This document shows positions 583 through 51,428 of a stretch of DNA of 64,000 nucleotides, in pieces (within the stretch, counting starts at the first letter, position 1; every line of letters starts with the position of its first letter). The notes below the pieces were generated by a model. That model worked only from the letters and a program-made list of their open reading frames with translations, was not told the DNA's origin and did no database searches. Both the position numbers and the translations under genes were made by a program. The stretch is from Phycisphaerales bacterium (GTDB lineage Bacteria > Planctomycetota > Phycisphaerae > Phycisphaerales > UBA1924): NCBI GenBank assembly GCA_029260435.1, contig JAJDDG010000005.1, forward strand, positions 1-64,000, written 5' to 3'.

Positions 583-667
583 CGCGCAATTCCGTGCCAC
601 CGATTCGCCTTCAGGTGCCGTGGTACAGGCGCAGCCTGAACCACGATCAATTCATTCCACTTCTCCC

Positions 668-698
668 GTGCCACTGACCGGTCTGCCGGTCAGTGCTC
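668..698. repeat. REP-like palindrome, family 1 (GTGC-CACTGACCGG-loop-CCGGTCAGTG-CTC)
   Basis: Perfect 10-bp stem. Family members also at 1287..1319, 22501..22532, 29150..29185, 41143..41173 and 51152..51183 (rc). Confidence 0.8.
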
Positions 699-726
699 TT
701 CATCTTCTACATTGTCTTCTCTTGCC

Positions 727-749
727 CCCTCTCCCTTCTAGGGAGAGGG
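727..749. repeat. family 4 palindrome (CCCTCTCCC-loop-GGGAGAGGG)
   Basis: Relatives at 1206..1228, 37848..37866 and 51369..51392, usually within 100 nt of a family 1 hairpin. Confidence 0.7.
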
Positions 750-793
750 CCGGGGTGAGGGTTCTTTTTAGCCTGGTGCCTTATCCTCTCCCC

Positions 794-1180
794 ATGTCCA
801 TCCTCGCCCACGGCATAGACCTCGTCGAGATCCCGCGCTTCGCGGAGCTGCTCGATAAACACCCCGAGCGCTTCCTCGACAAGTGCTTCACCGCCGGCGA
901 GCGCGCCTACGCCGATGCCAATCCCAAGCGCCGCCTCGAACACCTCGCCGCCCGCTTCGCCGCAAAGGAAGCCGCGATGAAAGCGCTGGGCACAGGGTGG
1001 GCCGCAGGAGTGACATGGCAGGATGTCGAGGTCGCCCGCGAAGACTCCGGTGCGCCGATCCTCTTGCTGCACAACCTCGCCCAAACCCGCGCTCAAGAAA
1101 TGGGCGCAGCGCGCTGGCTCCTCTCCCTCACCCACACCGAGCACTACGCGCAAGCCTCCGTCATCGCCTGCACGGAGTGA
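794..1180 (+). CDS. acpS: holo-[acyl-carrier-protein] synthase (4'-phosphopantetheinyl transferase)
   Basis: Internal Met of ORF 620..1180. MSILAHGIDLVEIPRF...FAAKEAAMKALGTG aligns along the full length with AcpS. Confidence 0.85.
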   Translation: MSILAHGIDLVEIPRFAELLDKHPERFLDKCFTAGERAYADANPKRRLEHLAARFAAKEAAMKALGTGWAAGVTWQDVEVAREDSGAPILLLHNLAQTRAQEMGAARWLLSLTHTEHYAQASVIACTE

Positions 1181-1437
1181 GCTACACGCAAACGCCAGTC
1201 CCGCCCCTTCTCCCCTTGGGGGAGAAGGTGATCGAACGACCCGTATGGAGAGTGAGATCGGATGAGGGGTCTTCCTCTTTCTCTCCGTGCCACCGATCCG
1301 CCGCGGCGGATCAGTGCTCTTCCGTCCTAACCCGACGGAGTACCTACCCTCCATCCGCAGGACGAATGTCCCTTCTTCCTCACAAAAATGCCACGCGCAC
1401 GCGTGGTAGATAAACAGACTTCTTGTAAAAGCGCGGG

Positions 1438-2979
1438 ATGTTGTTGAGCATGGTGTCTATGACCGCACCCACCGACCCTCCTCCACCCACCGATCCCCCC
1501 GAAGACCAACCGCCCGAACCACGGGAGCAACCCGCGCGCCCGCCCATCAGCGCAGATGATTTCGGCCCCGACAACCCGCCCAACCGCCAGCAGTGCCGCC
1601 AACTCCTTGTAGAAGCAAGCTACGATGCCAAGAAGATCGAGGCGTGGAACGAGTTGAGAAAGCGCATGGGTTGGCAATGGGAACCCGATCTCTCTGACAA
1701 GAAAGATTGCTGGGATGCGTGCGACATAGGATTATCTGTCCTGGGTGAGGGCGCCGAGCGCATTACAGCGGATCTGCAAAAAGCCCATCTAGAAGGGGCG
1801 GATCTAATGCTTTCCAGCCTCAAAGGTGTACATCTGTCTTATGCCAACCTTGAAGGGGCGGTTCTCAGGGACACCACATTTCGCAAGCAACCGAAAACGA
1901 GGCGAATATTCATCCGCGTCTACAGGATGTGCATCAAATACATCCGCAAAGGAAGGTGGCATGCACTGCGGAGAGTACTCTCTCTGCTTTCCCCGGAGTG
2001 GGGCTTCATCGACACGTTCATCTCCGGACGCGCAGGTCTGGGTGATTCGGACACATTCACACCCTCAACCGTCCTCGATAACGTCGATCTCCATGGCAAC
2101 ACAGGCTTCACCGCGCACGGCCAATCCGCCCGCGGCACACGCTTCGACCCCGCCGCCAAAGACCCCTACAGCATCCTCCGCCGCAAATACACCGGCCCGC
2201 TCATGCTTTTCACGCTTGTCTTCCTCGCAATGTTCTTCACGCCCTACCTCATCCGCGCAGGCGCATGGACCGCCGCCTCGCGTGTGCAGACCGCGTTGGT
2301 CGTGGCGGACGACTCCGCTCCAAAGTCATGGCCCGTCCTCCTGCGCGAGTCTTCAAGCGATCTGCAACATGCATCAGCCGAACTCCGCGCCACAGCACAA
2401 AGCCAATCCGATTTGCGCGAGTTGGTATTCAAATGGACAAACCGACTCGAAGCCGCAAACGCGAACATCCAACTCGCCATCGACCGCATCCCGGGTGAGA
2501 CGAAAGTTGCAGTCAATCTGACCAACGCACTGGAAGGCATTAATGCCGAACTCATGTCAACGGTGAGCACGCTGGGTTCAACAGCAGGCGCCACCGAAGC
2601 AAGCCTCCTGCGCGCAAGCGATGCGATCGCCGAACTATCCGAGCGCTTGAATACGCACGCCCAAACAACCAAACGCCAAGTCTGGTCCATCGTCCTCGGC
2701 TTCCGCGCCGGATTCTGGGGGTGGCTCGCCGGCGTCTTATCCATCATCTTCTTGTTCTATAACGTCCTCCGCGCATGCGTCACATGGTGGATGAGCCAGG
2801 TGCGCGACGCCGAAGAGCGCTCCGGGCACCTCCCCGAGATCCAGCAGTACTGGTGGTGTTTCTCCCTCCACCGCTTCGTACTCCAACCGATCTTTATCTT
2901 TGCCGTGTTCTCCTTTGTCTGGCACACGATCCTCTGGTTGAAAGAAGAGGTGGACGTACCCATCCAGTTCCTCCAATAG
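1438..2979 (+). CDS. pentapeptide-repeat protein with a C-terminal multi-pass membrane region
   Basis: ADLQKAHLEGADLMLSSLKGVHLSYANLEGAVLRD pentapeptide repeats and a Pro-rich N-terminus. Several hydrophobic helices lie at the C-terminus. Start uncertain. Confidence 0.4.
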   Translation: MLLSMVSMTAPTDPPPPTDPPEDQPPEPREQPARPPISADDFGPDNPPNRQQCRQLLVEASYDAKKIEAWNELRKRMGWQWEPDLSDKKDCWDACDIGLSVLGEGAERITADLQKAHLEGADLMLSSLKGVHLSYANLEGAVLRDTTFRKQPKTRRIFIRVYRMCIKYIRKGRWHALRRVLSLLSPEWGFIDTFISGRAGLGDSDTFTPSTVLDNVDLHGNTGFTAHGQSARGTRFDPAAKDPYSILRRKYTGPLMLFTLVFLAMFFTPYLIRAGAWTAASRVQTALVVADDSAPKSWPVLLRESSSDLQHASAELRATAQSQSDLRELVFKWTNRLEAANANIQLAIDRIPGETKVAVNLTNALEGINAELMSTVSTLGSTAGATEASLLRASDAIAELSERLNTHAQTTKRQVWSIVLGFRAGFWGWLAGVLSIIFLFYNVLRACVTWWMSQVRDAEERSGHLPEIQQYWWCFSLHRFVLQPIFIFAVFSFVWHTILWLKEEVDVPIQFLQ

Positions 2980-3032
2980 CCCCAATCTCCTTACTTCTCG
3001 CCATCGGCGCACTTTTTACCGATAATGCTCAC

Positions 3033-6831: not shown

Positions 6832-8403
6832 ATGGGTTGGACATCCATTATTCTCGGGTTGGTGCTGGCGGGGTTGCTGCTGAGCACGCTGCCGCGGATC
6901 AAGGGCGCATCGCTCCGGAGCGCGACGGTGTTGCTCGCGTTGTTGCTCGTCGTAGTTGGTGTGGCGTTTTCGAGCGTGCGGTATATCGCGCCGGACCGCG
7001 TCGGGATCGTGGAGAAGCATGCGCTTGGAGCGCGTATGAGCGGGGGCAGCATCATCGCGCCCAACGGCGAGATGGGCGTGCAGGCGGACGTGCTCTACCC
7101 GGGGTGGCACTTCTGGTACTGGCCCGTGGTGTACGACGTGAAGAGCGAACGGATGATGCGCATCGAGGAAGGCAAGGTCGGGCTGGTTAACGCGACGGAC
7201 GGGCGTGCGCTGAGCGAGGGGCAGGTCTTCGCGGACGAGGTTTTGGGAACGGAATTCGAGAAGATGGTCAAGGATCCGGCGTACTTCCTCACCGACGGCG
7301 GCGGGCAGAAGGGGCCGCAGACGAACGTGCTCACTCGGGGTACCTACCGCCTCAACCCGGCGCTGTTCGAGGTGAAGCAGGTCGGCAAGACGACGATCGC
7401 ACCCGGCACGGTCGGTGTGCTCAAGTCCAACATCGGTGGTGATCCATCGATCCGGGTCGAGGTCGGCGAAGGAGATTCGATCTTCCTCGCGGCTGCTGGC
7501 GAGAAGGGGATCCGTGCGGCGTGGCTCGAGCCCGGCGCGTACCCGCTCAACACGCAGGCGTACGAGGTGATTGCTATCAACACCCGTGAGAAGACGGTTG
7601 CCTACACAAAGCTCTCCTCTTCGGAGGGTGAGAGCGGGATTACGGTGCGATCGTCCGACGGGTTTACGTTCCCGGTGGATATCCGCGTGGAGTATCAGGT
7701 GAATCCGAAGCATGCGCCCGAGATCGTGGCGCGGTTCGGCGGCGACGATCTGGAACTGCGCAAGCGTCTCCGGTCTGCCGTTCGTGCGATCTTCCGGAAC
7801 AACGCGGAGCGCGTGAAGGCGCTGGACTATGTGAACAACCGAACGGAGCAGGAAAGAAAATCCACCGAGATGCTTGCCGTCGAGATGAGCAAGATCGGTC
7901 TGGCGATCAAGGCGGTCCGGATCGGCGACGTGGGCGACGAGGCAAGCCTCGGCGAACTGCTCGAGACGCAGATGCAGCGAGAGATCGCGCTGCAGAAGCA
8001 GGCGACATTCCAGGAGCAGCAGCGCGCCGCTGAGCAGGAGAAAGAACTGACCCGCACCGAGCAGGAAGCCGAGGAGGAGAAGCGTCTGGCGACCGCACGG
8101 TACGAGGTGCAGATCGCCGAGCAGGACAAGGAGCGGGTGATCATCGCGGCGCAGGCGGAGGCCGAGGCGATCGAGATCCGGGCGAAGGCGCAGGCCGAGC
8201 AGTTCCGGGTGGTTGCCGAGCAGATCGGCTCGGGCAACGCGGCTCTCATGGAACTGCTCAAGGTGATCGGCGAGCGGGGCATCCAGATCACGCCGCGGGT
8301 CATGGTGACGGGCGGCGAAAGTGGCGTGAGCGACGGGCAGACCACCGCGCTGATCGGGACGATGCTCGACAGCATGGTGTCCAGGGACACAAACCCCGGG
8401 TGA
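6832..8403 (+). CDS. SPFH/band-7 (flotillin-like) membrane protein with a C-terminal coiled coil
   Basis: AAGGAG RBS 11 nt upstream. N-terminal TM helices, an SPFH core and a long EA-rich coiled coil (EQEKELTRTEQEAEEEKRLA...). Confidence 0.8.
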   Translation: MGWTSIILGLVLAGLLLSTLPRIKGASLRSATVLLALLLVVVGVAFSSVRYIAPDRVGIVEKHALGARMSGGSIIAPNGEMGVQADVLYPGWHFWYWPVVYDVKSERMMRIEEGKVGLVNATDGRALSEGQVFADEVLGTEFEKMVKDPAYFLTDGGGQKGPQTNVLTRGTYRLNPALFEVKQVGKTTIAPGTVGVLKSNIGGDPSIRVEVGEGDSIFLAAAGEKGIRAAWLEPGAYPLNTQAYEVIAINTREKTVAYTKLSSSEGESGITVRSSDGFTFPVDIRVEYQVNPKHAPEIVARFGGDDLELRKRLRSAVRAIFRNNAERVKALDYVNNRTEQERKSTEMLAVEMSKIGLAIKAVRIGDVGDEASLGELLETQMQREIALQKQATFQEQQRAAEQEKELTRTEQEAEEEKRLATARYEVQIAEQDKERVIIAAQAEAEAIEIRAKAQAEQFRVVAEQIGSGNAALMELLKVIGERGIQITPRVMVTGGESGVSDGQTTALIGTMLDSMVSRDTNPG

Positions 8404-12448: not shown

Positions 12449-12790
12449 CGGAGCCTCCCGGCGGGTGGAACCGCTATGATTATCCCGCGTATCGTGATGT
12501 GCCATCGTATCCGGATCATTCCCGGGTGCGGGCGACAACCTGACAATTCGAAGGCGAGCCTGTCGGCGGGACGTGCCGGCGGAGTGATCTAACCGCACTT
12601 GTTCATTCGTCATACCTGCTCTTTCAGCGGGTTCTGGTGACAAGGTGAGCCGACAACACGACAACCTGCGTCGTGCCCCCCGGGAGTGTTTCCGGCGGGG
12701 CGAGTTCATCGACGGCTCGTGTGCTCTTCGGTATCCCCTCGTGGGCGAGACACATGTGTCAGAACGCAAGGAGACGAACAAGTGATTCGG

Positions 12791-13825
12791 ATGATGAAAA
12801 AGAAAAGACAGGGCTTCACGCTCATCGAACTGCTCGTGGTGATCGCGATCATCGCGCTGCTCATCGGCATCCTGCTGCCCGCCCTCGGGCGCGCCCGCAA
12901 GAACGCCAACCAGCTCAAGGACGCCACCCAGCTCCGCGGCATCATGCAGTCTATGGAGACATGGGCCTCGGACTACCGTGGTGATTACCCGAACCCGGAC
13001 CGTGTTGATCGCGCCAACTGGACCGAGGACACCCAGTCCCCCGGCACCAGCAAGAATCGCACGGGTGCGATCCTTGGGTTGATGATCACCAGCTCGTCGA
13101 TCGTTCCCGAGCAGTGCGTCAGTGGATCGGAAGTGGCCGCGATCTCCCCTCATCTCGGGTACCAGTTCGACAAGCCCGAGGCGGCAGAGATCGATAACAA
13201 CGCCTTGTGGGATCCGATTTTCAAGGGCAGCCCGGACGACCACAAGTATGCTGATTGGGTGGATTTTTCCACACAGGGCCTCGACGAAGAAATCGGGCAC
13301 AACAGCTTCGCGCACATGATCCTCGGTGGTGCCCGCAAGTCCGAGTGGAAGAGCAACCTGAGCGCCTCGACCCCGCTCTGGGCGAACCGCGGGCCGGTCT
13401 ACGAAGCGGACCCCGGTGCCGTAGTCGGTGCCCCCAAGTGGTTCCTCAAGGGCGGCAGCGCTAACGGACAGCCGGGCGAGGGTGACCCCACGGGCACCAG
13501 CTCCGCCACGCTCTTCATCCACGGCCCGGAGAACTCATGGGCTGGCAACATCGCCTACGGCGACGGGCACGCGTCGTTCAGCCGGACCCCGGATCCCGAG
13601 GCCTCCACCTACACCGAGACGAACGCCGCCGAGGGCAAGATCACGCGCCTCGACAATATCTTCCTGGACGAAGAGGACGAGGGGAACAACGCCCCCGTCC
13701 AGAGCCGTAGGAACGCGTACCTGAGGGTCCAGTCATCGGGCTTTAATACTGGTGTGACTATTACCGAAGGCGACCTGGATCCGGTTTCTTCGAACTTCAT
13801 CTGGGTCGATGGCGAAGACATCTAA
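12791..13825 (+). CDS. DUF1559 (H-X9-DG) protein with an N-terminal prepilin-type cleavage/methylation motif
   Basis: ATG 12791 after AAGGAG. KRQGFTLIELLVVIAIIALLIGILLPAL prepilin signal. HxxxxxxxxxDG region near the C-terminus. Confidence 0.8.
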   Translation: MMKKKRQGFTLIELLVVIAIIALLIGILLPALGRARKNANQLKDATQLRGIMQSMETWASDYRGDYPNPDRVDRANWTEDTQSPGTSKNRTGAILGLMITSSSIVPEQCVSGSEVAAISPHLGYQFDKPEAAEIDNNALWDPIFKGSPDDHKYADWVDFSTQGLDEEIGHNSFAHMILGGARKSEWKSNLSASTPLWANRGPVYEADPGAVVGAPKWFLKGGSANGQPGEGDPTGTSSATLFIHGPENSWAGNIAYGDGHASFSRTPDPEASTYTETNAAEGKITRLDNIFLDEEDEGNNAPVQSRRNAYLRVQSSGFNTGVTITEGDLDPVSSNFIWVDGEDI

Positions 13826-13862: not shown

Positions 13863-14918
13863 ATGAAGCACATCAGACAAAGAAGAGCATTCACGCTTGT
13901 CGAGCTGCTCGTGGTGATCTCGATCATCGCGCTGCTGGTCGGGTTGCTGCTGCCGGCACTCGGGCGTGCCAAACGAACGGCACAGCAGGTCAAGTGCGGT
14001 GCGCAGTTGCGCGGTATCCAGCAGGGTATGCTGGCGTGGTCCGCGGACTTCGACGATCGGTACCCCGTCCCCGAGCGGTTGGATAAGAGCGACTGGACCG
14101 AGCCCGACACAGCGGACAAGGACCGCACCGGCAACATCCTCTCGGTTCTTATTTTCCAGAAGGTCATCTCACCGGAGCTGTGCATCAGCCCGGGTGAAGC
14201 ATCGACTGAAATCCGGGCGCCGATCGATGGCGTGGAATACAACTACATCTTCACCGACCAGACAGCGAACGGCGTTGTCACCAACGCAACCTACGCGCTG
14301 TACGACCCGCGGTTCAAGGGCAGCGTGCTCGATCACGATGCCGGCAATGCCCATATCGATTGGGCGGATGCCGAGCTGGATCGAGAGATCGGCAACAACA
14401 GCTACGCCCATACCCCCGTCACCCCCGGGATCAACCGAACCGAGGAGATGTGGGGCTCTGCGAATGCCAACGCACGCCAGGTGATCATGGGCAACCGTGG
14501 GCCGACCTACAAGGAGCTCAACGTCACCCAGGATCCGGACGAATGGGAACTGACCGAGGACGAGTTCGGCGAACAGTCATTGACCCTGCAGATCCACGGC
14601 AGCCGCAAGAGCTGGGCTGGCAACGTGCTGTTCAATGATTCCCACGTCGAGTTCTTCACCGAGCCGAACCCGCAATCGATCCAGATCTGGTGGGCCGGTG
14701 AGCAGACCACATTCCGCGACAACCTCTTCTTCGATGAACTCACCGAGGAAGACCCCGATACGGAAGACAATGCCTACAGCTCCGGGTGGTGGCGCCGCAA
14801 TGCCTACCTCCGCATCTGGAAGCACGGCATCCCCAACGACGCTACCGGGTACGTCTCCTTCTACATCGACGAGCCCGGACCTACCTATGTATACGTCGAT
14901 GGGCAGGTCGGCAGCTGA
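13863..14918 (+). CDS. DUF1559 (H-X9-DG) prepilin-like protein, paralog of 12791..13825
   Basis: RRAFTLVELLVVISIIALLVGLLLPAL. It shares WA/WS-DY..YP..R.D...WTE and NxxFxDGH motifs with the upstream paralog. Confidence 0.8.
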   Translation: MKHIRQRRAFTLVELLVVISIIALLVGLLLPALGRAKRTAQQVKCGAQLRGIQQGMLAWSADFDDRYPVPERLDKSDWTEPDTADKDRTGNILSVLIFQKVISPELCISPGEASTEIRAPIDGVEYNYIFTDQTANGVVTNATYALYDPRFKGSVLDHDAGNAHIDWADAELDREIGNNSYAHTPVTPGINRTEEMWGSANANARQVIMGNRGPTYKELNVTQDPDEWELTEDEFGEQSLTLQIHGSRKSWAGNVLFNDSHVEFFTEPNPQSIQIWWAGEQTTFRDNLFFDELTEEDPDTEDNAYSSGWWRRNAYLRIWKHGIPNDATGYVSFYIDEPGPTYVYVDGQVGS

Positions 14919-22397: not shown

Positions 22398-22532
22398 GGT
22401 GCCACGCCTTGGCCCGAAAGGCAAGGCGTGCTCTTATCAATTTTGGGGTGGCATGCTCACGCTTCAGCGCGAGCATGTCTTCTCTCCGTTCATCATCCCC
22501 GTGCCACTGACCCGTCCTCGGGTCAGTGCTCT
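22398..22532. repeat. composite REP-like element (family 2 hairpin GGTGCCACGCCTTGGCCCGAAAGGCAAGGCGTGCTC plus a family 1 hairpin)
   Basis: The same two-hairpin arrangement recurs at 41094..41173. Confidence 0.75.
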
Positions 22533-29121: not shown

Positions 29122-29149
29122 GCCGCGATTCTACGTGCCACATTTCCCT

Positions 29150-30419: not shown

Positions 30420-30560
30420 CTCCGCGGGTGCCGTGGTATACGTCGCAGGCGTAAACCACGATCTCTCAACGGGTGCTCTTTCTTCTACCCCTCTCTCCTG
30501 TCGAGGACACGCCGAAGGCGTGCCGCAGATCCGCCGAAGGCGGGATGCCCGGTATCTCTC

Positions 30561-36904: not shown

Positions 36905-37130
36905 GGGCAAGGCGCAGGGTGCCACTGGCGGCTTGCCCGCCAGTGTCCAGCCTACTCAAACAAACATGACGCTCAGTATCGCACGAATACAACGCGTTTC
37001 CACCGCCCGCCGCTTCTTCGTCAGAAAAATGCCATGCGTAGCATGGCTGGAAAATAAAATGTCTTCGGGGGGTGCGGGGGATTCTTCCCTCGCATCGCAT
37101 ACAACGAATACATTGCCGTTCTTGAAGTAT
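36905..37130 (+). repeat. ~230-bp structured repeat element, copy A
   Basis: GGGTGCCACTGGCGGCTTGCCCGCCAGTG hairpin, then a GCCATGC-gta-GCATGGC hairpin, then a GCGGGGGA-ttct-TCCCTCGC hairpin. About 80% identical to the copies at 45978, 49296(rc) and 49970(rc). Confidence 0.8.
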
Positions 37131-37144
37131 CCCGGAGCCTCGTC

Positions 37145-37822: not shown

Positions 37823-38028
37823 ACCGATCCCCGATGCCTCTTCCCTCCCTCCCCCTCTGGGGGAGGTCGAAGATCCGCCGGAGGCGGGATGTCATCACTG
37901 TCTGCAGTGATGACAGGAGAGGGCTCCCCAATCTACTCCTTTTTCTTGCCCCCTCTCCCCACCGAAAGAGTATTGGGGTGGGGGGGCATCTTCCTGATGC
38001 CTATTGCCTAATGCCCGGTGCCTTCTTC

Positions 38029-41093: not shown

Positions 41094-41173
41094 GGTGCCA
41101 CGACCTTGGCCCGGAGGGCAAGGCGTGCTTCTCATCTCTTTCGTGCCACTGACCTGTCTTCAGGTCAGTGCTT
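41094..41173. repeat. composite REP-like element (family 2 plus family 1 hairpins)
   Basis: GGTGCCACGACCTTGGCCCGGAGGGCAAGGCGTGCTT then GTGCCACTGACCTGTCTTCAGGTCAGTGCTT. Confidence 0.75.
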
Positions 41174-41236
41174 TTGGTCTCTCCTCTTCCTGATGCCTGA
41201 TCCCCGGTGCCTGGTGCCTTCTTCTTCTTCTTCCAT

Positions 41237-41266
41237 AAAAAAACGCGGCCCCGGGGGAGCCGCGTC
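41237..41266 (-). terminator. rho-independent terminator after the 41299..41844 gene
   Basis: On the minus strand: GCGGCUCCC/GGGGCCGC stem followed by UUUUUUU. Confidence 0.6.
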
Positions 41267-41298: not shown

Positions 41299-41844
41299 TT
41301 ACTCCGCGATGTGCTCGAAAATAGACTGCGACCGCAACACCAGCCCGCCCTGGGCCAGCAGGTGGTAGCTCTGGGCATGAACTTCACGCCGAAAACGCTG
41401 GATATCAAGGATCGATGCGCACCGCCCATCCTCGTCCTCCCACTCGTGGATCAGCGCATCGTTGTCCCGCCCAAACTCCAGAAGCTCGTCGTACGTGTCC
41501 CCGTACAGGGTCTCGGGAAGCTGCTCCGTCTGAACGGTGCAGACATATTTGATCTTCTCGCCGAACGCCTGCTCGTGATCACGCTCGCCCGCGCACGGCA
41601 CCGCAGCCACGATCCCGCGATCCGGGATCCCGTCTTCCTGAGCCGAGACCAGTTCCGTGGCGCACAGCCCGTCGTACTGCAGACGCATCAGGTGCATCCC
41701 GGGCATCACCCATGCTTCAAACTCGTAATCGGCGTGCTGGATCCAACGACGATCTTTCACCTGAAACAGCTCGGGATGAAGGGCTCGTCGGTACAAGATA
41801 AGACGGTAAGCCTGGAGGCTGGTTGACTTGACTGGGGCGCTCAT
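41299..41844 (-). CDS. hypothetical protein (DUF2617-like, acidic)
   Basis: 181-aa ORF with good codon usage and a terminator immediately downstream. Confidence 0.5.
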   Translation of the reverse strand: MSAPVKSTSLQAYRLILYRRALHPELFQVKDRRWIQHADYEFEAWVMPGMHLMRLQYDGLCATELVSAQEDGIPDRGIVAAVPCAGERDHEQAFGEKIKYVCTVQTEQLPETLYGDTYDELLEFGRDNDALIHEWEDEDGRCASILDIQRFRREVHAQSYHLLAQGGLVLRSQSIFEHIAE

Positions 41845-43994: not shown

Positions 43995-44002
43995 GAATCC
44001 AC

Positions 44003-44512
44003 ATGCAGATCCTCTCGATCACAACAAACATCCTCTCGCCACTGCTCGCCGTGGACACCGTCTGGCTCGAAGCCGCGCCCATCGAAGAGACAGCATCAGC
44101 CGTTCACGGGAGCGGAGGGATGGTAGATGGAGTGGGGGGGTGGGGAGTGTTGATCGCCGCGCTCTTCGTGCTGCTCGCCTGCCTCCTCGCTACCCGCTAC
44201 CTGATCCACCGTTCGCGCACCACCGATCTCCAGGCAGCCTTCTCCCGCCTCGCCAGGCGCATGATGCTGCCCCGTCGCGCCCGAAAATCAATCCTCGCCC
44301 TGAGCGAATCCTCGGGCATCCCCGCCGCCGCCATGCTCATCTCCCGAGGCGCATTCACCGCCGCCCTCGCAACCGCCGATACAGACCAGACCAAAGAACC
44401 CCGCGCACGCGCACCGCGCATCATGCTGGGGCTCTTCGCAGAACTCACCCCGCCGCCCCGATCCGGGGGAGCGTGGGGCACCCTCATCAACCGCTTCTCA
44501 ACCCGCACCTGA
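44003..44512 (+). CDS. hypothetical membrane protein
   Basis: ATG 44003, 9 nt after the HEAT gene stop. One TM helix (GVLIAALFVLLACLLA) and a basic C-terminal region. Confidence 0.45.
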   Translation: MQILSITTNILSPLLAVDTVWLEAAPIEETASAVHGSGGMVDGVGGWGVLIAALFVLLACLLATRYLIHRSRTTDLQAAFSRLARRMMLPRRARKSILALSESSGIPAAAMLISRGAFTAALATADTDQTKEPRARAPRIMLGLFAELTPPPRSGGAWGTLINRFSTRT

Positions 44513-44520
44513 GCCAACAC

Positions 44521-44991
44521 ATGCAAGACCCATCCGAAAGACGCGAGCACCGCCGACTGCCCTACAACCGCGAGGTCAAGTTCGCCTGGCTCCACGACGG
44601 CTGCATCGCGTGGCCCGCCCGCCGCATCATCGCCGAAGACATCTCCAAGGGCGGCATCCGCCTGCGAGGCGAGATCATCCCCGAGGGCGCAACCTCCGCG
44701 GTCATCGAACTCAAACGCGCCGACGGCACCCGCGCCGTCATGGGTGTCAATGTCGTCTACACCAAGAACATGATCCACACCGCCGCGCAACTCGAACGCG
44801 AAATGGACGCCGCGAGCAGTGGGGGGGGTGGGAGCAGTGGGAGTGCCGGTGGAGGTGTTGGTGTGGGGGGTGGTCTGGGTGGGGGGGTTGCAGGCGCACG
44901 CTTCTTTGCGCTCTCGGACGAACTCATCGAACGCGAACTCACAGACGCACAAGGCAGAGTCACAGGGCTCGACGCCTACGTCGCCGCGTGA
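44521..44991 (+). CDS. PilZ-domain c-di-GMP receptor with a Gly/Ser-rich linker
   Basis: RREHRRLPY (RxxxR) and EDISKGGIRL (DxSxGG) motifs. Confidence 0.7.
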   Translation: MQDPSERREHRRLPYNREVKFAWLHDGCIAWPARRIIAEDISKGGIRLRGEIIPEGATSAVIELKRADGTRAVMGVNVVYTKNMIHTAAQLEREMDAASSGGGGSSGSAGGGVGVGGGLGGGVAGARFFALSDELIERELTDAQGRVTGLDAYVAA

Positions 44992-45095
44992 TAAGCATAT
45001 CTGAGCGCCTTTGTTTTTCCTTTATAGTCCGCCGCCCAACCGTGGTACTCTGATCGCACGAGGCGAAGCCCATGCCGGGTTGTAAGGAGATAAGC

Positions 45096-45950
45096 ATGAA
45101 GTTGAGTATGATCATCGCTACAGGCCTGATGATGTGTTCTTCGTTCGCTCATGCGCAGCCCTGCGCAAACTATGACGCCTCGCTGGGTACATTCCCCGAG
45201 GATCAGGGTTGGGCATACGAAACAACCGGCGATACAGTCGTTATCACTACCGAGATCCGCGGAGACGCCCTGTACCAGAACTCGATGCCCGGGCATACCT
45301 GCCCCCCATCCGCAACGAATGCCCGGATCGCCGCCTGGCAAATATCCGGCGATTCATTCGAGTTCATTGACGGCATTGTCTTTGCAACAGAATTGAAAAT
45401 CATTGAGTCAGAAATCAATCAAAACTGCTCGCTCGGCTACGCTCGGGCTGGTGTGGCTTTCACCGCGATCGACGTGAACGGGAATGTATTCTGGATCGGT
45501 TTCGGCGAGGAAACAGTCCTACTCTCGAACTCGACCATCGCTCCAGTTGGCCCGGCCGTGAAAGAGATCGACTTCACGACGACCGACGGTTTCCATGTGT
45601 ACCGAGTTGAAGTGTCCGGATCGAGCGCGCTGTTATTCATCGACAACGTACTCTTAGGCGCAATCAACGGATTAGGAAATACAGTGGGAAGCACGAACCG
45701 TGTCTGGATCGGTGACGGTACAGTCTTCGCCAACAGCGAGTTCGAGATCCGCTCCTTCCATGTTGTTGGTCCGAACTGCTGCACGGCCGATGTGAATGGA
45801 GATAGCGTTATAGATGTCAACGACATCACATACGTGCTGTTCCGCCTCGGAAGCACGTGCCCCCCTTGCGACGGCGACGCCAACGAAGACGGCGCGGTCG
45901 ATGTCAACGATCTGACCTTTGTGCTCTTCCGCCTCGGTGATCCGTGTTGA
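45096..45950 (+). CDS. secreted protein with C-terminal dockerin-like repeats
   Basis: AAGGAG RBS and a signal peptide. Two DVNGDSVIDVNDITYVLFRLG / DANEDGAVDVNDLTFVLFRLG repeats. Local GC is markedly lower than in the flanks. Confidence 0.6.
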   Translation: MKLSMIIATGLMMCSSFAHAQPCANYDASLGTFPEDQGWAYETTGDTVVITTEIRGDALYQNSMPGHTCPPSATNARIAAWQISGDSFEFIDGIVFATELKIIESEINQNCSLGYARAGVAFTAIDVNGNVFWIGFGEETVLLSNSTIAPVGPAVKEIDFTTTDGFHVYRVEVSGSSALLFIDNVLLGAINGLGNTVGSTNRVWIGDGTVFANSEFEIRSFHVVGPNCCTADVNGDSVIDVNDITYVLFRLGSTCPPCDGDANEDGAVDVNDLTFVLFRLGDPC

Positions 45951-45977
45951 ACATATCTGTAAACTCAAACCGTGTTC

Positions 45978-46200
45978 ACCATCGCCGGGTGCCACTGGCG
46001 GCTTGTCCGCCAGTGTCCGCCCTGCTCAAGAAAACGTAACGCGCACCGTCACTCGAACACAACGCATCCCCGCCGCACGCCCCTTCTTCCTTTGAAAAAA
46101 GCCATGCGAAGCATGGCATAAAGACAATCTCTCTTGAGGGGGTGCGGGGGATCCCTCCCCCGCATCGCGCATGTCTCGTCCGCCGCAGCACGCACGCCGT
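45978..46200 (+). repeat. ~230-bp structured repeat element, copy B
   Basis: Same three hairpins as copy A, in the same order and orientation. Confidence 0.8.
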
Positions 46201-46220
46201 GTTCTGATTAGCCTGTCTCT

Positions 46221-46784
46221 ATGCCGCCGTCTTCTCCCAAACTCATTTTCCTCATCGGGCTCCGCGGCTCGGGCAAGACCACCCTCGGGCGCATGCTCGC
46301 CGAGCACCTCGGCGCATCGTTCGACGATCTCGACGACCTCGTCCGTGCGCACTTCGGTGTCGATACGATCCGCGAGATCTGGGAGACCGCCGGCGAGCGC
46401 GCATTCCGCGAGCAGGAAGCCGTGTGCATCAAGGACACCATCGCGGCGCACACTACCGCCGGACAGGAATCGATCCCGAGGGTCATCGCGCTCGGCGGCG
46501 GTTCGCCGACCGCCCCCGGAGCAAATAACACTCTCGTAGAGGCGCAGAACGCCGCCGTTTGCGACGTCATCTACCTCGATGCGCCCCCAGCGACGCTCGC
46601 CGCGCGCATCAACGCGTGCGATCCGGACCGACCGAGCCTCACGGGTACCGATCCTGTGCGCGAAGTCACCGCGGTGCATACGCAGAGACACAGCATGTAT
46701 GCGCAGCTCGCGCGCCACTCCGTGGACGCATCGGGCACCCTTGATGCTGTCCTGGCGCGCATCATTAGTGCACTCGAATCATAA
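46221..46784 (+). CDS. aroK: shikimate kinase
   Basis: LIGLRGSGKTTLGRMLAE P-loop plus a DxD shikimate-binding region. Confidence 0.85.
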   Translation: MPPSSPKLIFLIGLRGSGKTTLGRMLAEHLGASFDDLDDLVRAHFGVDTIREIWETAGERAFREQEAVCIKDTIAAHTTAGQESIPRVIALGGGSPTAPGANNTLVEAQNAAVCDVIYLDAPPATLAARINACDPDRPSLTGTDPVREVTAVHTQRHSMYAQLARHSVDASGTLDAVLARIISALES

Positions 46785-46835
46785 TTTTTCAGAGATGAAA
46801 AACGATGGATGGGGTGGTGGTGGAGGAGCGGGGGG

Positions 46836-47228
46836 TTAGGCGGCGAGCGAGTAGCGACCGCTCTCAAGGCGTTCCATGAGCCGCTGCTGATCGCCCGGCA
46901 TCACAAACCGCTTGAACACACACGCCATCCGCACAGGCCCGTTGTCCTCGACATCGTCCTCGTTGATCCACACAACATTCGCGAACGCGTACACCGGGCG
47001 GCGCTGGGAAAACCGCAGCGACTCCTGCCCCGGTAGTGTCAATCGGATCGCGACACTCGTGCCCGGCTCGATCGGGTAATCGAGTTCGAACCGCATCCCG
47101 CCCTCGGAAACGTCGTACGCGTGACCGGACCACTGGAATGTGTCGTTGTCGAGCGGGCGGATATCCACACGCGTGTACATCGAGGGGAGCGTGTAACGCT
47201 GGTGCTGGCGGCGGTTGTTCCCGTACAT
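46836..47228 (-). CDS. PilZ-domain c-di-GMP receptor
   Basis: RRQHQRY and DVSEGGMRFE motifs. The start could also be 47249. Confidence 0.7.
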   Translation of the reverse strand: MYGNNRRQHQRYTLPSMYTRVDIRPLDNDTFQWSGHAYDVSEGGMRFELDYPIEPGTSVAIRLTLPGQESLRFSQRRPVYAFANVVWINEDDVEDNGPVRMACVFKRFVMPGDQQRLMERLESGRYSLAA

Positions 47229-47353
47229 GACTGGCCTCCCTTGGCGCAATTCGGCCCTTGGCTGATAGCGCTATCGGTCGGCGGCGGGGCGGGGTTGAGC
47301 GGGTTGTGTGGTTGCGCCCGGTCGTGGCGCGGGGGAGCCCCGTATGTGGGGGG

Positions 47354-47815
47354 CTACGTTCGGGCGGCGATCAATTCGAGACTGACGCGGTCGATCGGCA
47401 GCCCGAGTTCGGCCTCGATCTGCTGCACCAGTTCGCTCGGGAACGACGCGAGGAGTTTTTTACCCAGGTGATGCGGCACATCGATGATCGAGCCGTCGGG
47501 CGATGTGATGTGCAGATGATCCGAGGTGTCGGCGTCGTAGCGGGTGGGGCCGCTCGCGGTGGGGATGCACCGGATGATGCCGGCTTTGCAGAAGGTTTCG
47601 AGTGTGTTGTAGACGGTGGCGAGCGAGGAGCACGAGCAGTTGCACCCGAGCATGTCGCGCAGTTGCTCTGCGGTGGGGTGGGTGTCCGTTTTCGCGAGGG
47701 CGCGGTAGAGCTCGAGGCGCTGCTTGGTGCAGCGCAGCCCGGCTTCGGCGAATAAAGATCTGATCTGTTGATCGCAATCGACCATCAGTTGGGTCACCTC
47801 GTTTCGATGGAGCAT
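47354..47815 (-). CDS. fur: Fur-family transcriptional regulator
   Basis: LRCTKQRLELYRAL...HPTAEQL...SLATVYNTLETF winged-helix region. HHxxxxC-type metal-site residues. Confidence 0.8.
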   Translation of the reverse strand: MLHRNEVTQLMVDCDQQIRSLFAEAGLRCTKQRLELYRALAKTDTHPTAEQLRDMLGCNCSCSSLATVYNTLETFCKAGIIRCIPTASGPTRYDADTSDHLHITSPDGSIIDVPHHLGKKLLASFPSELVQQIEAELGLPIDRVSLELIAART

Positions 47816-47879
47816 TCTTACAGGGCAATCGGCGCAAGGCGAGCCGATTACTTCGATTCGTTGAGATTGCGAATGAGTC

Positions 47880-48389
47880 TCAAGAAGAAGACGACGCTTC
47901 GGCGGCTTCCGGGGTTCTATGGTCTGACGGCGGCTCGAAGACCATTTTGTAGTGTGGGATCCCGGCTTCCTGGTATTCGTCTTCCATTTTGGACCACCCC
48001 ATGGACTCATAAAATTCGATGGCGCCAACGCGGGCGCTGCACCAGAGGGATTTCAGGGCGAGTTCGCCGAATGCCCGGCGTTCGAGTTCGGCGACGAGTC
48101 GGCGGGCGATGCCCTCGCGCTGGCGCTGGGGATCAACGACCATCTGCATCAGCTTGGCGGTGCCCTTGGTTGGGTAGTCCGGTAACAGGCAGACGCACCC
48201 GATGACCCGCTCACCCGAGGGGTGGTTGACGACGGCGACGATGTGTTCGCAGGCGGCTTCGGAGCCTGGGAAGAGCTTGTCGAGGTCGTCCATGTCGATG
48301 CCGATGGGCTTGAGCAGCACCCGGACGCGCAGCGCAACCTCTTGTGTATAAAGAGGATGCTGCTGATCGATGCGGATGACACGGATCAT
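47880..48389 (-). CDS. GNAT-family N-acetyltransferase
   Basis: QRQREGIARRLVAELERRAFGEL acetyl-CoA-binding motif A. Confidence 0.8.
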   Translation of the reverse strand: MIRVIRIDQQHPLYTQEVALRVRVLLKPIGIDMDDLDKLFPGSEAACEHIVAVVNHPSGERVIGCVCLLPDYPTKGTAKLMQMVVDPQRQREGIARRLVAELERRAFGELALKSLWCSARVGAIEFYESMGWSKMEDEYQEAGIPHYKMVFEPPSDHRTPEAAEASSSS

Positions 48390-48479
48390 GTAGAAGCTCG
48401 CTGCGTATGGCCCGGTGGGACGGTGTATTCAAGGATAGTATCCACTTACCGGGGCGGCGTTCAATCATCGATCCCGGTG

Positions 48480-49295
48480 ATGGGTAAAACTCGTGGAGTT
48501 GGTGGGTGCGACGGGGTTTGGAGACGGCGCGTGGCGAAGCGGCGGGTAGAAGAAGATCGGCGGCTGCTGTGTGAGGGGTGCGGGTACGACCTGACGGGGC
48601 TTGCGGGTGAAGGCGATGGTGGGAGGGCTTGCCCGGAGTGCGGGAGGGGGATCAACGAGTCGAAGCCCGTGCATCGGACGGGGACGGCGTGGCAGCGAAT
48701 CGGCGGGGTGCGCGGGTGGTGGGGATCGCTGGTGGAGTTGGTGCGTGGGAATCAGCAGATGTGGGAAGAGGCGCGGGTGGGATGGCGGACCGACCGGCAT
48801 TTGGCGCTATTCAATGCCGTCGCTGCGGGTGGGCTCGTCGTAGCGGGACTTGTCACCAACGGCATCTTTGGAACCAGTTTCCGAGAGGTAGCCGAGGTAA
48901 CCGTCGTTGTGCTGATTCTCTTCTGGTGGGTGCTCGTTCATCTGATAACGACATCGCTCGTGCTGATAATGATCTGGATTGAGCATGTCGGCATTCGATT
49001 CTTCGGGAAACGACGGGGATGGCGAATTAGCGAGGGGGTTGCGTGGACGGTTGTGGGTCACGCGAGCTATGGGTGGCTGGTGAGCGGGGTTTTGTGCGGC
49101 GTGCTGATGCTCGAGCCGGTTCGGATGAATATGCCGTGGCGAGATATGGAGTTGCCGTTTTTAGCAGGGCATATCGATGGATACCTCATCACGCTGATTG
49201 GCGCGGCGCTGTGGGGGATGATTGTGTTTGAGATTTGTGTGTATCTGGGTGTGCGGAAGATGCGGTATGCGAACCCTCCAACAATCACGCAGTGA
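48480..49295 (+). CDS. zinc-ribbon (CEGC-x18-CPECG) multi-pass membrane protein
   Basis: ATG 48480. N-terminal Cys motif, then ~5 TM helices. The 3' third is duplicated at 49589..49969. Confidence 0.55.
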   Translation: MGKTRGVGGCDGVWRRRVAKRRVEEDRRLLCEGCGYDLTGLAGEGDGGRACPECGRGINESKPVHRTGTAWQRIGGVRGWWGSLVELVRGNQQMWEEARVGWRTDRHLALFNAVAAGGLVVAGLVTNGIFGTSFREVAEVTVVVLILFWWVLVHLITTSLVLIMIWIEHVGIRFFGKRRGWRISEGVAWTVVGHASYGWLVSGVLCGVLMLEPVRMNMPWRDMELPFLAGHIDGYLITLIGAALWGMIVFEICVYLGVRKMRYANPPTITQ

Positions 49296-49585
49296 CACGC
49301 TTCTCGATTCACGATGCGGGGGAAGTGTCCCCCGTTTACCCCCCCTTTATGTTTCGCAATGCGGGGGAAGAATCCCCCGCACCCCCTCAGGAAGAAGAAG
49401 GCATCGGGGATCAGGTGCCGAGCATCAGGAAGAAGCTATTTTTCAGCCACGCTTCGCGTGGCTTTTTTCTGAGGAAGAAGGAGCGGGCGGCGGGGAAGCA
49501 TTTAGTTCGTGTAATGGTGTGTGTTCCGTTTGTTTGAACAGGGCGGGCACTGGCGGACAAGCCGCAGTGGCACCCGGCGTTTCCA
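49296..49585 (-). repeat. ~230-bp structured repeat element, copy C (inverted orientation, internally expanded)
   Basis: The reverse complement aligns with copies A and B. The middle hairpin carries compensatory changes (GCCACGC/GCGTGGC), and the terminal hairpin is partly duplicated. Confidence 0.8.
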
Positions 49586-49588
49586 CGT

Positions 49589-49969
49589 TTGGATCGATGG
49601 CTGTTGCTTGGGTTATTAATCGTGCTGGCCGTTGGTGGTATTACTTTGCTACTGACTGGTGTTGAGCAGAAAGGGATTCGGTTCTTTGGGAACCGGCGCG
49701 GGTGGCGGATTTCGGAGGGTGTGGGATGGACGGTTGTTGGGCACGCGAGCTACGGGTGGCTGGTGAGTGGGGTGCTGATGCTCGAGCCGGTTCGGATGAA
49801 TATGCCGTGGCGAGATATGGAGGTGCCGTTTTTAATGTCGGATATCGATGGGTACCTCATCACGCTGATTGGCGCGGCGCTGTGGGGGATGATTGTGTTT
49901 GAGATTTGTGTGTATCTGGGAGTGCGGAAGATGCGGTATGCGAATCCGCCGGGAGTTGTTTCTTCTTGA
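49589..49969 (+). pseudogene. partial paralog (3' membrane module) of the 48480..49295 gene, with no ATG (TTG/GTG only)
   Basis: The last ~95 aa are ~90% identical to the C-terminus of 48480..49295. The nucleotides are near-identical from GCTGGTGAG onward. Confidence 0.5.
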
Positions 49970-50175
49970 AATGCGATGCGGGGGGCAAGCCCCCCGCATC
50001 CCCCGAAGAGATGCTGTTTATCTGCCACGCTCCCCCACACACAGGCGTGGGGCATTTTTCTGAGGAAGAAGGAGCGGGCACAGGGTATGTGTTGTGTTCA
50101 TGTGATGGACGCGTCACGATTGTTTGAGCAGGCCGGACACTGGCGGACAAGCCGCCAGTGGCACCCGGCGTTGAA
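49970..50175 (-). repeat. ~230-bp structured repeat element, copy D (inverted orientation)
   Basis: The reverse complement aligns with copies A-C. The GGTGCCACTGGCGGCTTGTCCGCCAGTG head is intact. Confidence 0.8.
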
Positions 50176-50299
50176 AGTGAACCAGTATCCGGAATGCCTA
50201 GTTCAATGCGATTTTAAATAAATTGATCCCTAGGACAAACAGGATGAATCCAATGCCCAGACTGATGAGCGATATGAACACCCAGCCGAGGACAATGCC

Positions 50300-50560
50300 C
50301 TATGCAATCGTGAGAACTGGTTGTTCATCAAACTTGCTGCTGGTGTACATCTGAAACGGTCTGGATTCAATCTCGGTGCGTGCCTTTATTCCTGGCACGG
50401 TGATGGGTTGTCCACATCTCAAGCACCTTATGGCTTCGCCTGCCAGATTGATCGAATCCTCATTCTCAAGCCGACAATTTGGACACGAATGCTTAATTGT
50501 AATACGACCGGTCGTGCGGCATCGCTTTAACTGATACGGAATTGGCTTCTGATCTGTCAT
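50300..50560 (-). CDS. small zinc-ribbon protein (CPNC-x15-CLRCG) in a low-GC patch
   Basis: 86 aa from CAT 50558-50560 with GGAG upstream; two CxxC pairs; GC ~47% versus ~66% in the flanks. Confidence 0.45.
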   Translation of the reverse strand: MTDQKPIPYQLKRCRTTGRITIKHSCPNCRLENEDSINLAGEAIRCLRCGQPITVPGIKARTEIESRPFQMYTSSKFDEQPVLTIA

Positions 50561-50773
50561 CACGGGCTCCGTTCGTTTGGCCTGGTCAGCGCGGCCCGAT
50601 TGTCTCCGTGATGCTACGTTCAATCAAGCAAGCCATTCATCACTTCTCTTGATACGCCGGCGCGAAAAGGGCAGGCGTGGGTTCGTGTTTGTGTGAGGGG
50701 ATAGGGTTCGGGAGGGGGATCTGAGTGGTTAGGCGCGCAAAATGACGGCTGAGCCACATATCCGACCGGGGCC

Positions 50774-51085
50774 ATGCTGAACGATTACGGGCATAATCCT
50801 CCTACGGGTGGAGGGAGGTTGAGGATGGCGGTGAGGGTGTTCTACACGGGGGTGTTGGAACGGAGCGGGGATTCGATGGTTGTCCGGACGATCGGGCCGT
50901 CGGGCGGGGATGGGGAGATCGAACTGGATGAGCCGCAGGTGGTGATCGACTCGGCGAAGCTGCGCCGGTGGGTGCATGAGCACGCGGGGGAAGCGGGGGA
51001 GGAGCCGTACGGGGTGACGCTTCGGTTTAGGCGCGTGACAGGTGAGGAGGCGGAGGAGGCGCTGGAGTCTGTTGAGGAGGGGTAG
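50774..51085 (+). CDS. hypothetical acidic protein
   Basis: ORF only; weak support. Confidence 0.3.
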   Translation: MLNDYGHNPPTGGGRLRMAVRVFYTGVLERSGDSMVVRTIGPSGGDGEIELDEPQVVIDSAKLRRWVHEHAGEAGEEPYGVTLRFRRVTGEEAEEALESVEEG

Positions 51086-51428
51086 GGAGGTTGGGGAGGG
51101 TCTGTTTTCAGTGATGCTGCGCGTCACTTTTATGTAAGGAAGTAAAGATGAAGAGCACTGACCCGAGGACGGGTCAGTGGCACGGGGAGAAGAGCGTCGA
51201 TTGGCACGGAGGGCAAGCGGTGGCACTCAGCGTGTTGGATCGTGGTTTACGCCTACGGCGTATACCACGGCACCCGGCTGGAGATGGTGGTGGATGATGA
51301 ATAGAAGTGTTCAAAGCATGTGAAGACCCCCTCACCCGGTCTCATCCCGGCGCGCCGGGATTCGACCACCCTCTCCCTGGAAAGGGAGAGGGGGCAGGAC
51401 AGGATTCGGCGGGGTAGAGTAGTCGGCG

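Follow-up and report, generated by a model that had tools for sequence, protein, structure and literature searches.

The intergenic spacers of a 64,000-nt stretch of a Phycisphaerales genome (assembly GCA_029260435.1, contig JAJDDG010000005.1, positions 1 to 64,000 of the forward strand; 63% G+C), referred to here as the window, carry 18 short GTGC-headed hairpins and two truncated heads. We interpret these hairpins – families 1, 2, 3 and 5, plus one GTGG-headed unit – as repetitive extragenic palindromes (REPs) of the class associated with REP-associated tyrosine transposases (RAYTs, or TnpA_REP; HUH-Y1 enzymes), and place the probability of this assignment at roughly 85%. A preliminary description of the window had proposed REPs mobilized by RAYTs, and the proposal is supported by RAYT genes in related genomes that are bracketed by the same palindromes.

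GTGC-headed hairpins in the window

Each of the units has a stem of 9–13 bp and a loop of 3–7 nt, with the foot 5′-GTGC (GTGG in one unit) flush with the stem and present on one side only. The stem is followed by CTC or CTT in families 1 and 2, and by ATC in family 5. Family 1 (consensus GTGC-CACTGACC..GGTCAGTG-CTY) has five canonical copies and one stem variant (CACCGATCCGCC); family 5 (consensus GGTGC-CGTGGTAYA..ACCACG-ATC) has three copies, all with the same A.A stem mismatch. The units and truncated heads are as follows.

594–609 (+): truncated REP head, GTGCCACCGATTCGCC; left half of a REP of the 1287–1319 type
615–648 (+): family 5 REP, GTGC-CGTGGTACAGGC gca GCCTGAACCACG-ATC; A.A stem mismatch
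668–698 (+): family 1 REP, GTGC-CACTGACCGG tctg CCGGTCAGTG-CTC
1287–1319 (+): family 1 stem variant, GTGC-CACCGATCCGC cgcg GCGGATCAGTG-CTC; family 1 head and tail on another stem, with one C.A mismatch
22399–22433 (+): family 2 REP, GTGC-CACGCCTTGGC ccgaaa GGCAAGGCGTG-CTC
22448–22477 (+): GTGG-headed REP, GTGG-CATGCTCACGC ttca GCGCGAGCATG
22501–22531 (+): family 1 REP; overlaps the final codons (9 nt) of the minus-strand open reading frame (ORF) 22523–23053
29135–29141 (+): isolated GTGCCAC head without a hairpin, 8 nt ahead of the next REP
29150–29185 (+): family 1 REP between the divergent uvrB and permease genes; stem of 13 bp
29231–29257 (+): solitary family 3 REP, GTGC-CACTGGCGG cttgt CCGCCAGTG
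30428–30463 (+): family 5 REP, between the convergent permease gene and gene 30561–33176
36919–36945 (+): family 3 REP heading a ~200 bp element
41095–41130 (+): family 2 REP with a bulged stem
41143–41173 (+): family 1 REP, 48 nt past the family 2 copy and in identical orientation
45989–46015 (+): family 3 REP heading a ~200 bp element
49547–49573 (−): family 3 REP heading a ~200 bp element
50138–50164 (−): family 3 REP heading a ~200 bp element
51153–51183 (−): family 1 REP
51192–51226 (−): degenerate third copy of the family 2 REP, GTGCCACCGCTTGCCCTCCGTGCCAATCGACGCTC
51238–51273 (−): family 5 REP with a 13-bp stem, the A.A mismatch kept

The units are arranged singly or head-to-tail. At 0.6 kb family 5 precedes family 1; at 22.4 kb family 2 is followed by the GTGG unit and that by family 1; at 41.1 kb family 2 precedes family 1; and at 51.2 kb, read on the minus strand, family 5 is followed by family 2 and then family 1.

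This inventory differs in several respects from the preliminary description, which recognized at least four families with a common GTGCCAC head. The hairpins are indeed at the sites it named, but its family 4 has no GTGC head and is treated separately below; family 5, with three copies, had been overlooked. Five of the six copies claimed for family 1 are canonical, the sixth (1287–1319) being the variant stem, and the perfect 9–10-bp stems ascribed to the family do not extend to the 13-bp stem at 29150–29185 or to the C.A mismatch at 1287–1319. Both family 2 copies were located, but there is in addition the degenerate third at 51192–51226. The spacing of about 50 nt reported between families 2 and 1 applies at 41 kb (48 nt) but not at 22.4 kb, where it is 102 nt because the GTGG-headed hairpin intervenes; at 51 kb, where the family 2 copy is degenerate, it is 43 nt. 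All five family 3 copies were located, four of them heading an element of ~200–235 bp, as had been described.

The bare heptamer GTGCCAC is not significantly enriched in the window (18 matches versus 11.3 expected). The extended pattern GTGCCAC-N8-30-GTGCT occurs 8 times versus 0.26 expected, a number reached in 0 of 100 shuffles, and GGTGCCRYKG occurs 8 times versus 2.6 expected. Among 216 hairpin feet on both strands of the window, GTGC is the top preceding 4-mer, with 15 occurrences versus 7 for the runner-up. These controls bear on the suggestion that the repeats are an artefact of local duplication, or palindromes that GC-rich DNA produces by chance. One tandem duplication (49093–49279 versus 49764–49950, 93% identical) does contain two of the ~200 bp elements, but the other copies have unrelated flanks, the sequences recur on unrelated contigs from numerous genomes, and the shuffle controls exclude chance. 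This suggestion, to which we give practically no weight, is refuted by the shuffles together with the occurrence in many other genomes.

RAYT genes bracketed by the palindromes

A RAYT gene flanked by these palindromes is what the preliminary description had proposed looking for, and such genes are present in relatives, next to hairpins of family 1 (locus L042), family 3 (L175, L214 and L100) and a family 5-like type (L051). An E. coli RAYT sequence served as the probe, and three loci were picked out. The gene at L042 (7171–7713, minus strand) lies in the same metagenome-assembled genome (MAG), JBJHBZ01, as loci L011 and L081, and encodes a protein of 180 aa that scores 96.8 bits with the NCBIfam model REP_Tyr_transpos (cut-off 80 bits) and 26.6 bits with Pfam Y1_Tnp. 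It contains the motifs PEHVHLV (HVH) and YVHENPV, so that the HUH motif and a catalytic tyrosine with an asparagine four residues on (Y-x3-N) are both present, and its best PDB match is E. coli TnpArep (4ER8), in an alignment spanning both motifs. The gene is bracketed by pairs of family 1 REPs at 7066–7140 and 7735–7860.

The other four genes have similar surroundings. L175 (3813–4382) is flanked by four exact family 3 REPs, two to either side, L214 (2053–2679; 81.8 bits with the NCBIfam model) has one family 3 REP to either side, L100 (1156–1797) lies between two family 3-like REPs, and L051 (1520–2095) lies between GGGTG[GC]-CATGGTC..CCATG-ATC hairpins that resemble family 5. The L042, L051 and L100 proteins are ~40% identical pairwise, which fits one REP family per RAYT; each tnpAREP gene has been described as having its own REP family (PMC6006769).

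There are 1059 homologues of the L042 protein at E≤1e-10, those with a named source being mostly from Phycisphaerae or Planctomycetota, and one, from Mucisphaera calidilacus, is already named a REP-associated tyrosine transposase. The window was earlier thought notable for its phylum in its richness in REPs. These homologues, and the GGTGC-foot REPs already tabulated for a planctomycete, speak otherwise: the REP density is normal for the order. The window has 18 copies in 64 kb, and 26 genome blocks of the closest relative, JBJHBZ01, gave 48 family 1 copies.

The same genes bear on whether the hairpins could be ends or miniature derivatives of IS200/IS605 insertion sequences, similar to palindrome-associated or miniature inverted-repeat transposable elements (PATE/MITE-like) and moved by a classical TnpA_IS200 and not by a domesticated RAYT. 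The ends of IS200/IS605 elements are indeed subterminal hairpins, with a guide tetranucleotide on the 5′ side, and the orientation of these elements is biased in a way linked to replication (PMC3333891, PMC3971601); the ~200 bp element has differing hairpins at its two ends. However, the L042 protein scores 96.8 bits with the RAYT model versus 17.1 with the IS200 model, L214 scores 81.8 with no IS200 match listed, and the flanked genes bear the TnpA_REP signature Y-x3-N. Neither tnpA nor tnpB is present in the window, and a search of 1.45 Mb of related loci turned up no ~200 bp element. An IS200/IS605 origin is thus very improbable.

Distribution and variation in relatives

Family 1 was scanned for in species-representative genomes and family 3, as an exact 28-mer, in metagenome contigs. 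The family 1 pattern occurs in at least 108 stretches from at least 35 assemblies, and the family 3 28-mer in at least 120 metagenome contigs; copies beyond the window, which the preliminary description had made a test of its proposal, are therefore plentiful. The remaining counts from relatives, here and in the following sections, are among the matches listed. The family 1 matches are mostly from Phycisphaerales, with a few from Syntrophaceae/Thermodesulfobacteriota MAGs.

In 173 of 176 family 1 core hairpins GTGC stands on exactly one side, and in none on both. There are 72 distinct inner stems among 178 family 1 copies, and the ninth stem pair is T-A, C-G, G-C, T-G or A-T in 70 of the 72 inner-stem variants; such compensatory variation implies selection for pairing. 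Inverted family 1 pairs 10–100 nt apart prevail in some relatives (e.g. JBJHBZ01 and NVSP01); only singlets are seen in CAYTSW (7/7), OZ245825 (4/4) and JAUIFD (4/4).

The best nucleotide matches of the window, at about 80%, are to loci L011 and L081 of the Phycisphaerales MAG JBJHBZ01, the only ones with a strong nucleotide match among the loci compared. Synteny with L011 and L081 is limited to single genes, so that there are no orthologous spacers to compare.

An exact family 1 REP (GTGCCACTGACC..GGTCAGTGCTC) is also present in L012, L013, L022, L035, L054 and L068. These are Syntrophaceae, Thermodesulfobacteriota and 'Deltaproteobacteria' MAGs of 54–57% G+C in which family 1 occurs as inverted doublets, and in L035 and L054 the REP lies within a longer element bounded by ATACCATTTCGC and GCGAAATGGTAT. 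The sharing of family 1 sequences suggests that the RAYT/REP system may have been transferred between phyla.

Gene context

All 18 window REPs lie between genes, the sole ORF overlap being the 9 nt at 22501–22531. Neighbouring genes were confirmed by Pfam and include the following.

794–1180: acpS
gene ending at 22368: tRNA_bind (csaA-like)
26959–29121 (−): uvrB
gene ending at 30419: ArsP permease
36082–36897: PlsC-like acyltransferase

A pentapeptide-repeat gene and genes for GH20, GGDEF and HEAT-repeat proteins are further Pfam-confirmed neighbours. The palindromes earlier placed near acpS, uvrB/permease, csaA and plsC are where they were said to be. The hairpins that follow the ileS stop (37848–37985) are of other kinds; the GTGC-headed REPs at 41 kb are upstream of ileS, whose start is at 40977.

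In relatives, 32 family 1 singlets are found between convergent genes, 25 between co-directional and 3 between divergent ones, with 11 inside crude ORF calls. REP direction is independent of gene direction: in co-directional contexts 12 singlets point the same way as the genes and 13 the opposite way, and in the window the clusters agree with their flanking genes at 0.6, 1.3 and 46 kb and oppose them at 41, 49.5, 50.1 and 51.2 kb. No T-run follows the window GTGC-headed REPs on either strand. The missing T-run and a direction unrelated to the genes rule out a role of the REPs as intrinsic terminators. At 41243–41265 (−), after gene 41299–41844, the hairpin GACGCGGCTCC ccc GGGGCCGCGT runs into TTTTTTT and is a canonical intrinsic terminator, so ordinary terminators coexist with REPs in this genome. 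Rfam searches at gathering thresholds gave 0 matches in the window.

These data also bear on the broader possibility that the hairpins are selected for a host function – as RNA 3′-end stabilizers or terminators, or as sites for nucleoid or topology proteins – with the RAYT link being secondary. In its favour are sequences of 28–31 nt that are identical across at least 35 assemblies and at least 120 metagenome contigs, a location that is downstream of genes in most cases (32 convergent, 25 co-directional and 3 divergent) and the preservation of stems through compensatory change. But the direction is gene-independent, at 12 versus 13 in relatives and 3 same versus 4 opposite in the window; copies occur in a divergent promoter region (29150–29257); the family 1 stem has no following T-run; copy number and doublet/singlet make-up vary widely among genomes; and the same sequences bracket five RAYT genes. 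Other bacteria are known to put REPs to host uses, which is compatible with mobility. We consider a primary host function unlikely, and retain the assignment to RAYT-class REPs.

Strand bias and GC skew

GC skew in the window reaches 0.45, and the cumulative minimum is at 47,105. Over 44000–51000 the skew changes from about −0.25 to +0.3–0.45 independently of gene strand; the GH20 gene (minus) and the GGDEF gene (plus) both lie in the +0.4 region, and the HEAT-repeat gene (plus) lies in a −0.28 region. An explanation of the skew by gene strand is ruled out, since Pfam-confirmed genes are found on both strands in uniformly skewed regions. The minimum at 47,105 suggests a replication origin. There is no dnaA near this position, the neighbours being aroK, PilZ, Fur and GNAT genes. 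DnaA-box-like 9-mers (at most one mismatch) number 13 in the window versus 4.7 expected, five of them within 44.7–50.4 kb.

All eight REP clusters to the left of 47,105 are on the plus strand, and the right-hand clusters, two of which are independent, are on the minus strand. The GTGC strand is therefore the C-rich strand in all 10 window clusters, across the skew switch. Local skew was also calculated in relatives, from the sequence within 3 kb of the repeat on either side, leaving out the nearest 300 nt. GTGC is on the C-rich strand in 33 of 35 family 1 singlets with |skew|≥0.1 (p=4e-8), and in 23 of 30 family 3 singlets on metagenome contigs with |skew|≥0.05. Members of family 1 inverted doublets show no bias (19 versus 17 of 36). 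As a rule it is the C-rich strand that is made as the lagging strand and that serves as template for the leading strand. It is conceivable, and we put it forward tentatively, that single REPs are inserted or retained strand-specifically relative to the replication fork, the members of inverted doublets being unbiased.

Proposed mechanism and points against it

A REP is a short hairpin with a conserved tetranucleotide foot at its 5′ side. The RAYTs of E. coli, Stenotrophomonas maltophilia and Marinomonas sp. MWYL1 bind the REP as a folded single strand, with the foot as a guide; the strand is cut at a hairpin-adjacent dinucleotide, and the strands are rejoined, by which REPs are spread or rearranged. 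In the Phycisphaerales genome several REP families, each probably with its own RAYT paralogue, have most likely piled up head-to-tail between genes, where they and other short modules make up mosaics similar to bacterial interspersed mosaic elements (BIMEs), among them the ~200 bp element headed by family 3. We infer that the cognate RAYTs are encoded by the window's own genome and that REP insertion or retention may be coupled to the replication fork.

By analogy with the characterized enzymes, the Phycisphaerales RAYTs would cleave beside the hairpin, and the CT following family 1 and 2 stems is a candidate site, CT being the cleavage site of the RAYTs studied so far. Corneloup 2021 (PMC8266576) showed for a single RAYT system that the cleavage dinucleotide is chosen with the foot as guide; for a GTGC foot this would mean GC or GA. 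CT follows the stem in only 15 of the 41 family 1 copies that were not forced to end in CTC, so tail conservation is weaker than the scan pattern implies.

Several observations weigh against the assignment of the hairpins to RAYT-class REPs. No RAYT/Y1 transposase gene was found within the 64-kb window by tblastn. The L175 and L100 proteins, at 68.9 and 75.7 bits, are under the NCBIfam cut-off of 80, and the foot, GTGC, departs from the canonical GT[AG]G. None of the 18 window REPs belongs to an inverted doublet (REPIN), and under the REPIN model single REPs are reportedly immobile remnants. REP sequences of 28–31 nt that are identical across dozens of species are unusual, REPs having been described as species-specific (PMC6006769), and this identity could reflect a conserved host function instead of, or besides, mobility. 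Finally, IS200/IS605 elements have a replication-linked bias with the active strand on the lagging-strand template (PMC3333891, PMC3971601), and the REP polarity is opposite to a simple IS608 analogy if the GTGC strand is active. Copies on the exposed strand (the active strand on the lagging-strand template) may be preferentially excised, the survivors being those on the protected strand; alternatively, the active strand of these RAYTs may be the complement of the GTGC strand.

Family 4, a putative triplex motif

The preliminary description had counted family 4 as four copies within the GTGC set; three copies were found, none with a GTGC head, and they match the intrastrand triplex motif TM_ECO (earlier potential intrastrand triplex, PIT), with consensus CCCTCNCCC-N3-6-GGGNGAGGG-N3-GGGNGAGGG (Holder 2015, PMC4666352).

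727–762 (+): family 4, CCCTCTCCC ttcta GGGAGAGGG ccg GGGTGAGGG; TM_ECO/PIT-type
1206–1269 (+): family 4, degenerate and interrupted; hairpin at 1206–1228, third arm GGATGAGGGG at 1260–1269
51327–51392 (−): family 4, second loop interrupted by a 30-nt palindrome

The copy at 727–762 fits the TM_ECO consensus exactly and is off E. coli K-12 TM_ECO no. 12 at 2 of 36 positions; those at 1206–1269 and 51327–51392 fit only with an insertion of 30–32 nt ahead of the third arm. Judged by its sequence, family 4 is a putative triplex motif of the TM_ECO type and stands outside the GTGC-headed REP set. It is intergenic, as TM_ECO/PIT is (Holder et al. 2015, NAR 43:10126), and triplex formation is predicted from the motif. 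It differs from TM_ECO in that two of the three window copies carry the insertion, and the window copies often adjoin family 1 REPs. Triplex-type motifs adjoin family 1 REPs in relatives too (L028 1592–1615, L033 6054–6077), and one is also present at L059 1598–1624.

The ~200 bp mosaic element and other modules

Four of the family 3 REPs head an element of ~200 bp, whose parts follow in the order family 3 REP, 65-nt spacer, CTTCTTCC block, A-run/GCCAYGC hairpin/A-run, and GGGGGTGCGGGGG hairpin. The A-run/GCCAYGC hairpin/A-run module varies with compensatory changes.

1366–1424 (+): partial middle module (A-run, GCCACGCG hairpin, A-run); nhmmer E=2e-7
36912–37109 (+): mosaic element with family 3 REP, spacer, A-run/GCCATGC hairpin/A-run and GGGGGTGCGGGGG hairpin
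45981–46176 (+): mosaic element
49346–49581 (−): mosaic element with an extra 39-nt CCTGATGC..TTCTTC module; middle hairpin terminator-like on the plus strand (49445–49463)
49962–50172 (−): mosaic element, within the tandem duplication that includes the 3′ end of gene 48222–49295

When read on the strand complementary to the REP head, the middle hairpin is scored as an intrinsic terminator, and in the two right-hand elements the terminator-like strand is that of the upstream genes. Searches of 786 kb of genome loci and 670 kb of metagenome loci (1.45 Mb) revealed nothing of the element beyond its REP head, and we read it as a genome-specific mosaic built on a REP.

The tandem duplication (48964–49279/49647–49950, 76–93% identity) comprises the 3′ end of a membrane/zinc-ribbon gene (48222–49295) and the ~200 bp element, and leaves a truncated second ORF at 49589–49969. 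Sub-threshold matches to the Rfam family Chlorobi-1 RNA, with 22.9 and 17.3 bits versus a gathering threshold of 50, are present at 1385–1436 (+) and 50009–50058 (−). They sit on the A-run/GCCACGCG hairpin module and share the stretch AAAAGCG; the relationship is unproven. Two other modules without a GTGC foot recur in the spacers, a CCTGATGCC..GGTGCCTTCTTC block (37990–38028, 41185–41225 and 49385–49425, the last inside the 49.4-kb element) and a GATCCGCC-GRAG-GCGGGATG hairpin (30528–30550 and 37864–37885). Recurrence of short modules in the same spacers indicates that the spacers are mosaics, as in enterobacterial BIMEs.

Two further features of the window were noted. The adjacent paralogous genes 12686–13825 and 13863–14918 share a 92-nt 5′ segment (82% identical) that encodes a prepilin-type N-terminal signal (FTLIELLVVI..IIALL), and ARAGORN predicts a tRNA-Arg(CCT) at 20151–20241 (−) that, at 91 nt, is longer than usual for this tRNA and runs into the beginning of ORF 19092–20258.

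Comparison with known systems

To our knowledge, REP/RAYT systems have been studied almost only in Proteobacteria. The hairpins share with the E. coli REP/BIME REPtron (4ER8; Ton-Hoang 2012, Messing 2012, Corneloup 2021) the form of a short extragenic hairpin with a 5′ tetranucleotide foot, the presence of several subfamilies per genome, mosaic clusters and, in relatives, a REP-bracketed RAYT gene. The A.A mismatch of family 5 is comparable to the bulge of REP_Ec as a conserved stem irregularity. Unlike in E. coli, the foot is GTGC and not GTAG, and the family 1 and 3 stems are perfect; whereas E. coli BIMEs contain inverted pairs, the window units are all single or head-to-tail. REPINs (Bertels and Rainey 2011) are represented by family 1 in JBJHBZ01 and NVSP01, where it is found mostly as inverted pairs, in contrast to 0 pairs among the 18 window REPs.

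By analogy, the IS200/IS605 elements IS608 and ISDra2 would have in common with this system the HUH-Y1 enzyme, a hairpin with a guide tetranucleotide, single-strand chemistry and a replication-linked orientation bias. They differ in that the repeat unit here contains no transposase and the enzyme is of the RAYT type, and the sign of the bias is opposite if the foot-bearing strand is active. A limited literature search found no report of a strand bias of this sort for REPs, and the bias of single copies is the one point that may exceed what has been described. If true, it would be genomic evidence for replication-coupled, RAYT-driven REP dynamics with a polarity opposite to that of IS200/IS605, and, combined with the presence of near-identical REPs in some Desulfobacterota as well as two classes of planctomycetes, would be relevant to the way in which REPs spread. 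It is a testable lead on REP insertion or loss at the fork and on the strand involved, a point left open by earlier work (PMC3333891, PMC8266576).

The closest counterparts are in Planctomycetes, where tagged REPs have been noted (Di Nocera 2013, PMC3733652) and REPs with a GTGC/GGTGC foot have been tabulated next to subclass 2.2 tnpAREP genes of Planctomyces brasiliensis (Quentin 2018, BMC Genomics 19:475, Table S1; PMC6006769). A literature search found no publication pairing REPs with Phycisphaera. The P. brasiliensis REPs are GGTGCCACTGCTGGCTTGTCCAGCAGTG and GTGCCACTGGCTCCGCCAGTG (Quentin 2018, Table S1; PMC6006769), so near-identical GGTGCCACTG...CTTGT REPs were already on that list; between GGTGCCACTGCTGGCTTGTCCAGCAGTG and window family 3 (GGTGCCACTGGCGGCTTGTCCGCCAGTG) there are only compensatory inner-stem changes, the head and loop being shared. 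The GGTGC/GTGG-foot REPs that Quentin 2018 lists beside subclass 2.2 tnpAREP genes of Planctomycetes and Acidobacteria have, as here, a GGTGC foot on a stem starting with CACTG and a CTTGT/CTTGC loop, and they likewise flank RAYT genes with the Y-x3-N motif. They differ from the present set in that the host class here is Phycisphaerae, that families 1, 2 and 5 have other stems, and that family 1 has a conserved CTC tail. The elements are thus Phycisphaerales, GTGC-foot instances of a kind of REP known before. They add a REP set with a GTGC foot that is conserved as exact 28–31-mers in many species, with several RAYT clades, each with its own stem; for annotation, the spacers can be labelled as REP/BIME-type repeats and family 4 as a putative triplex motif.

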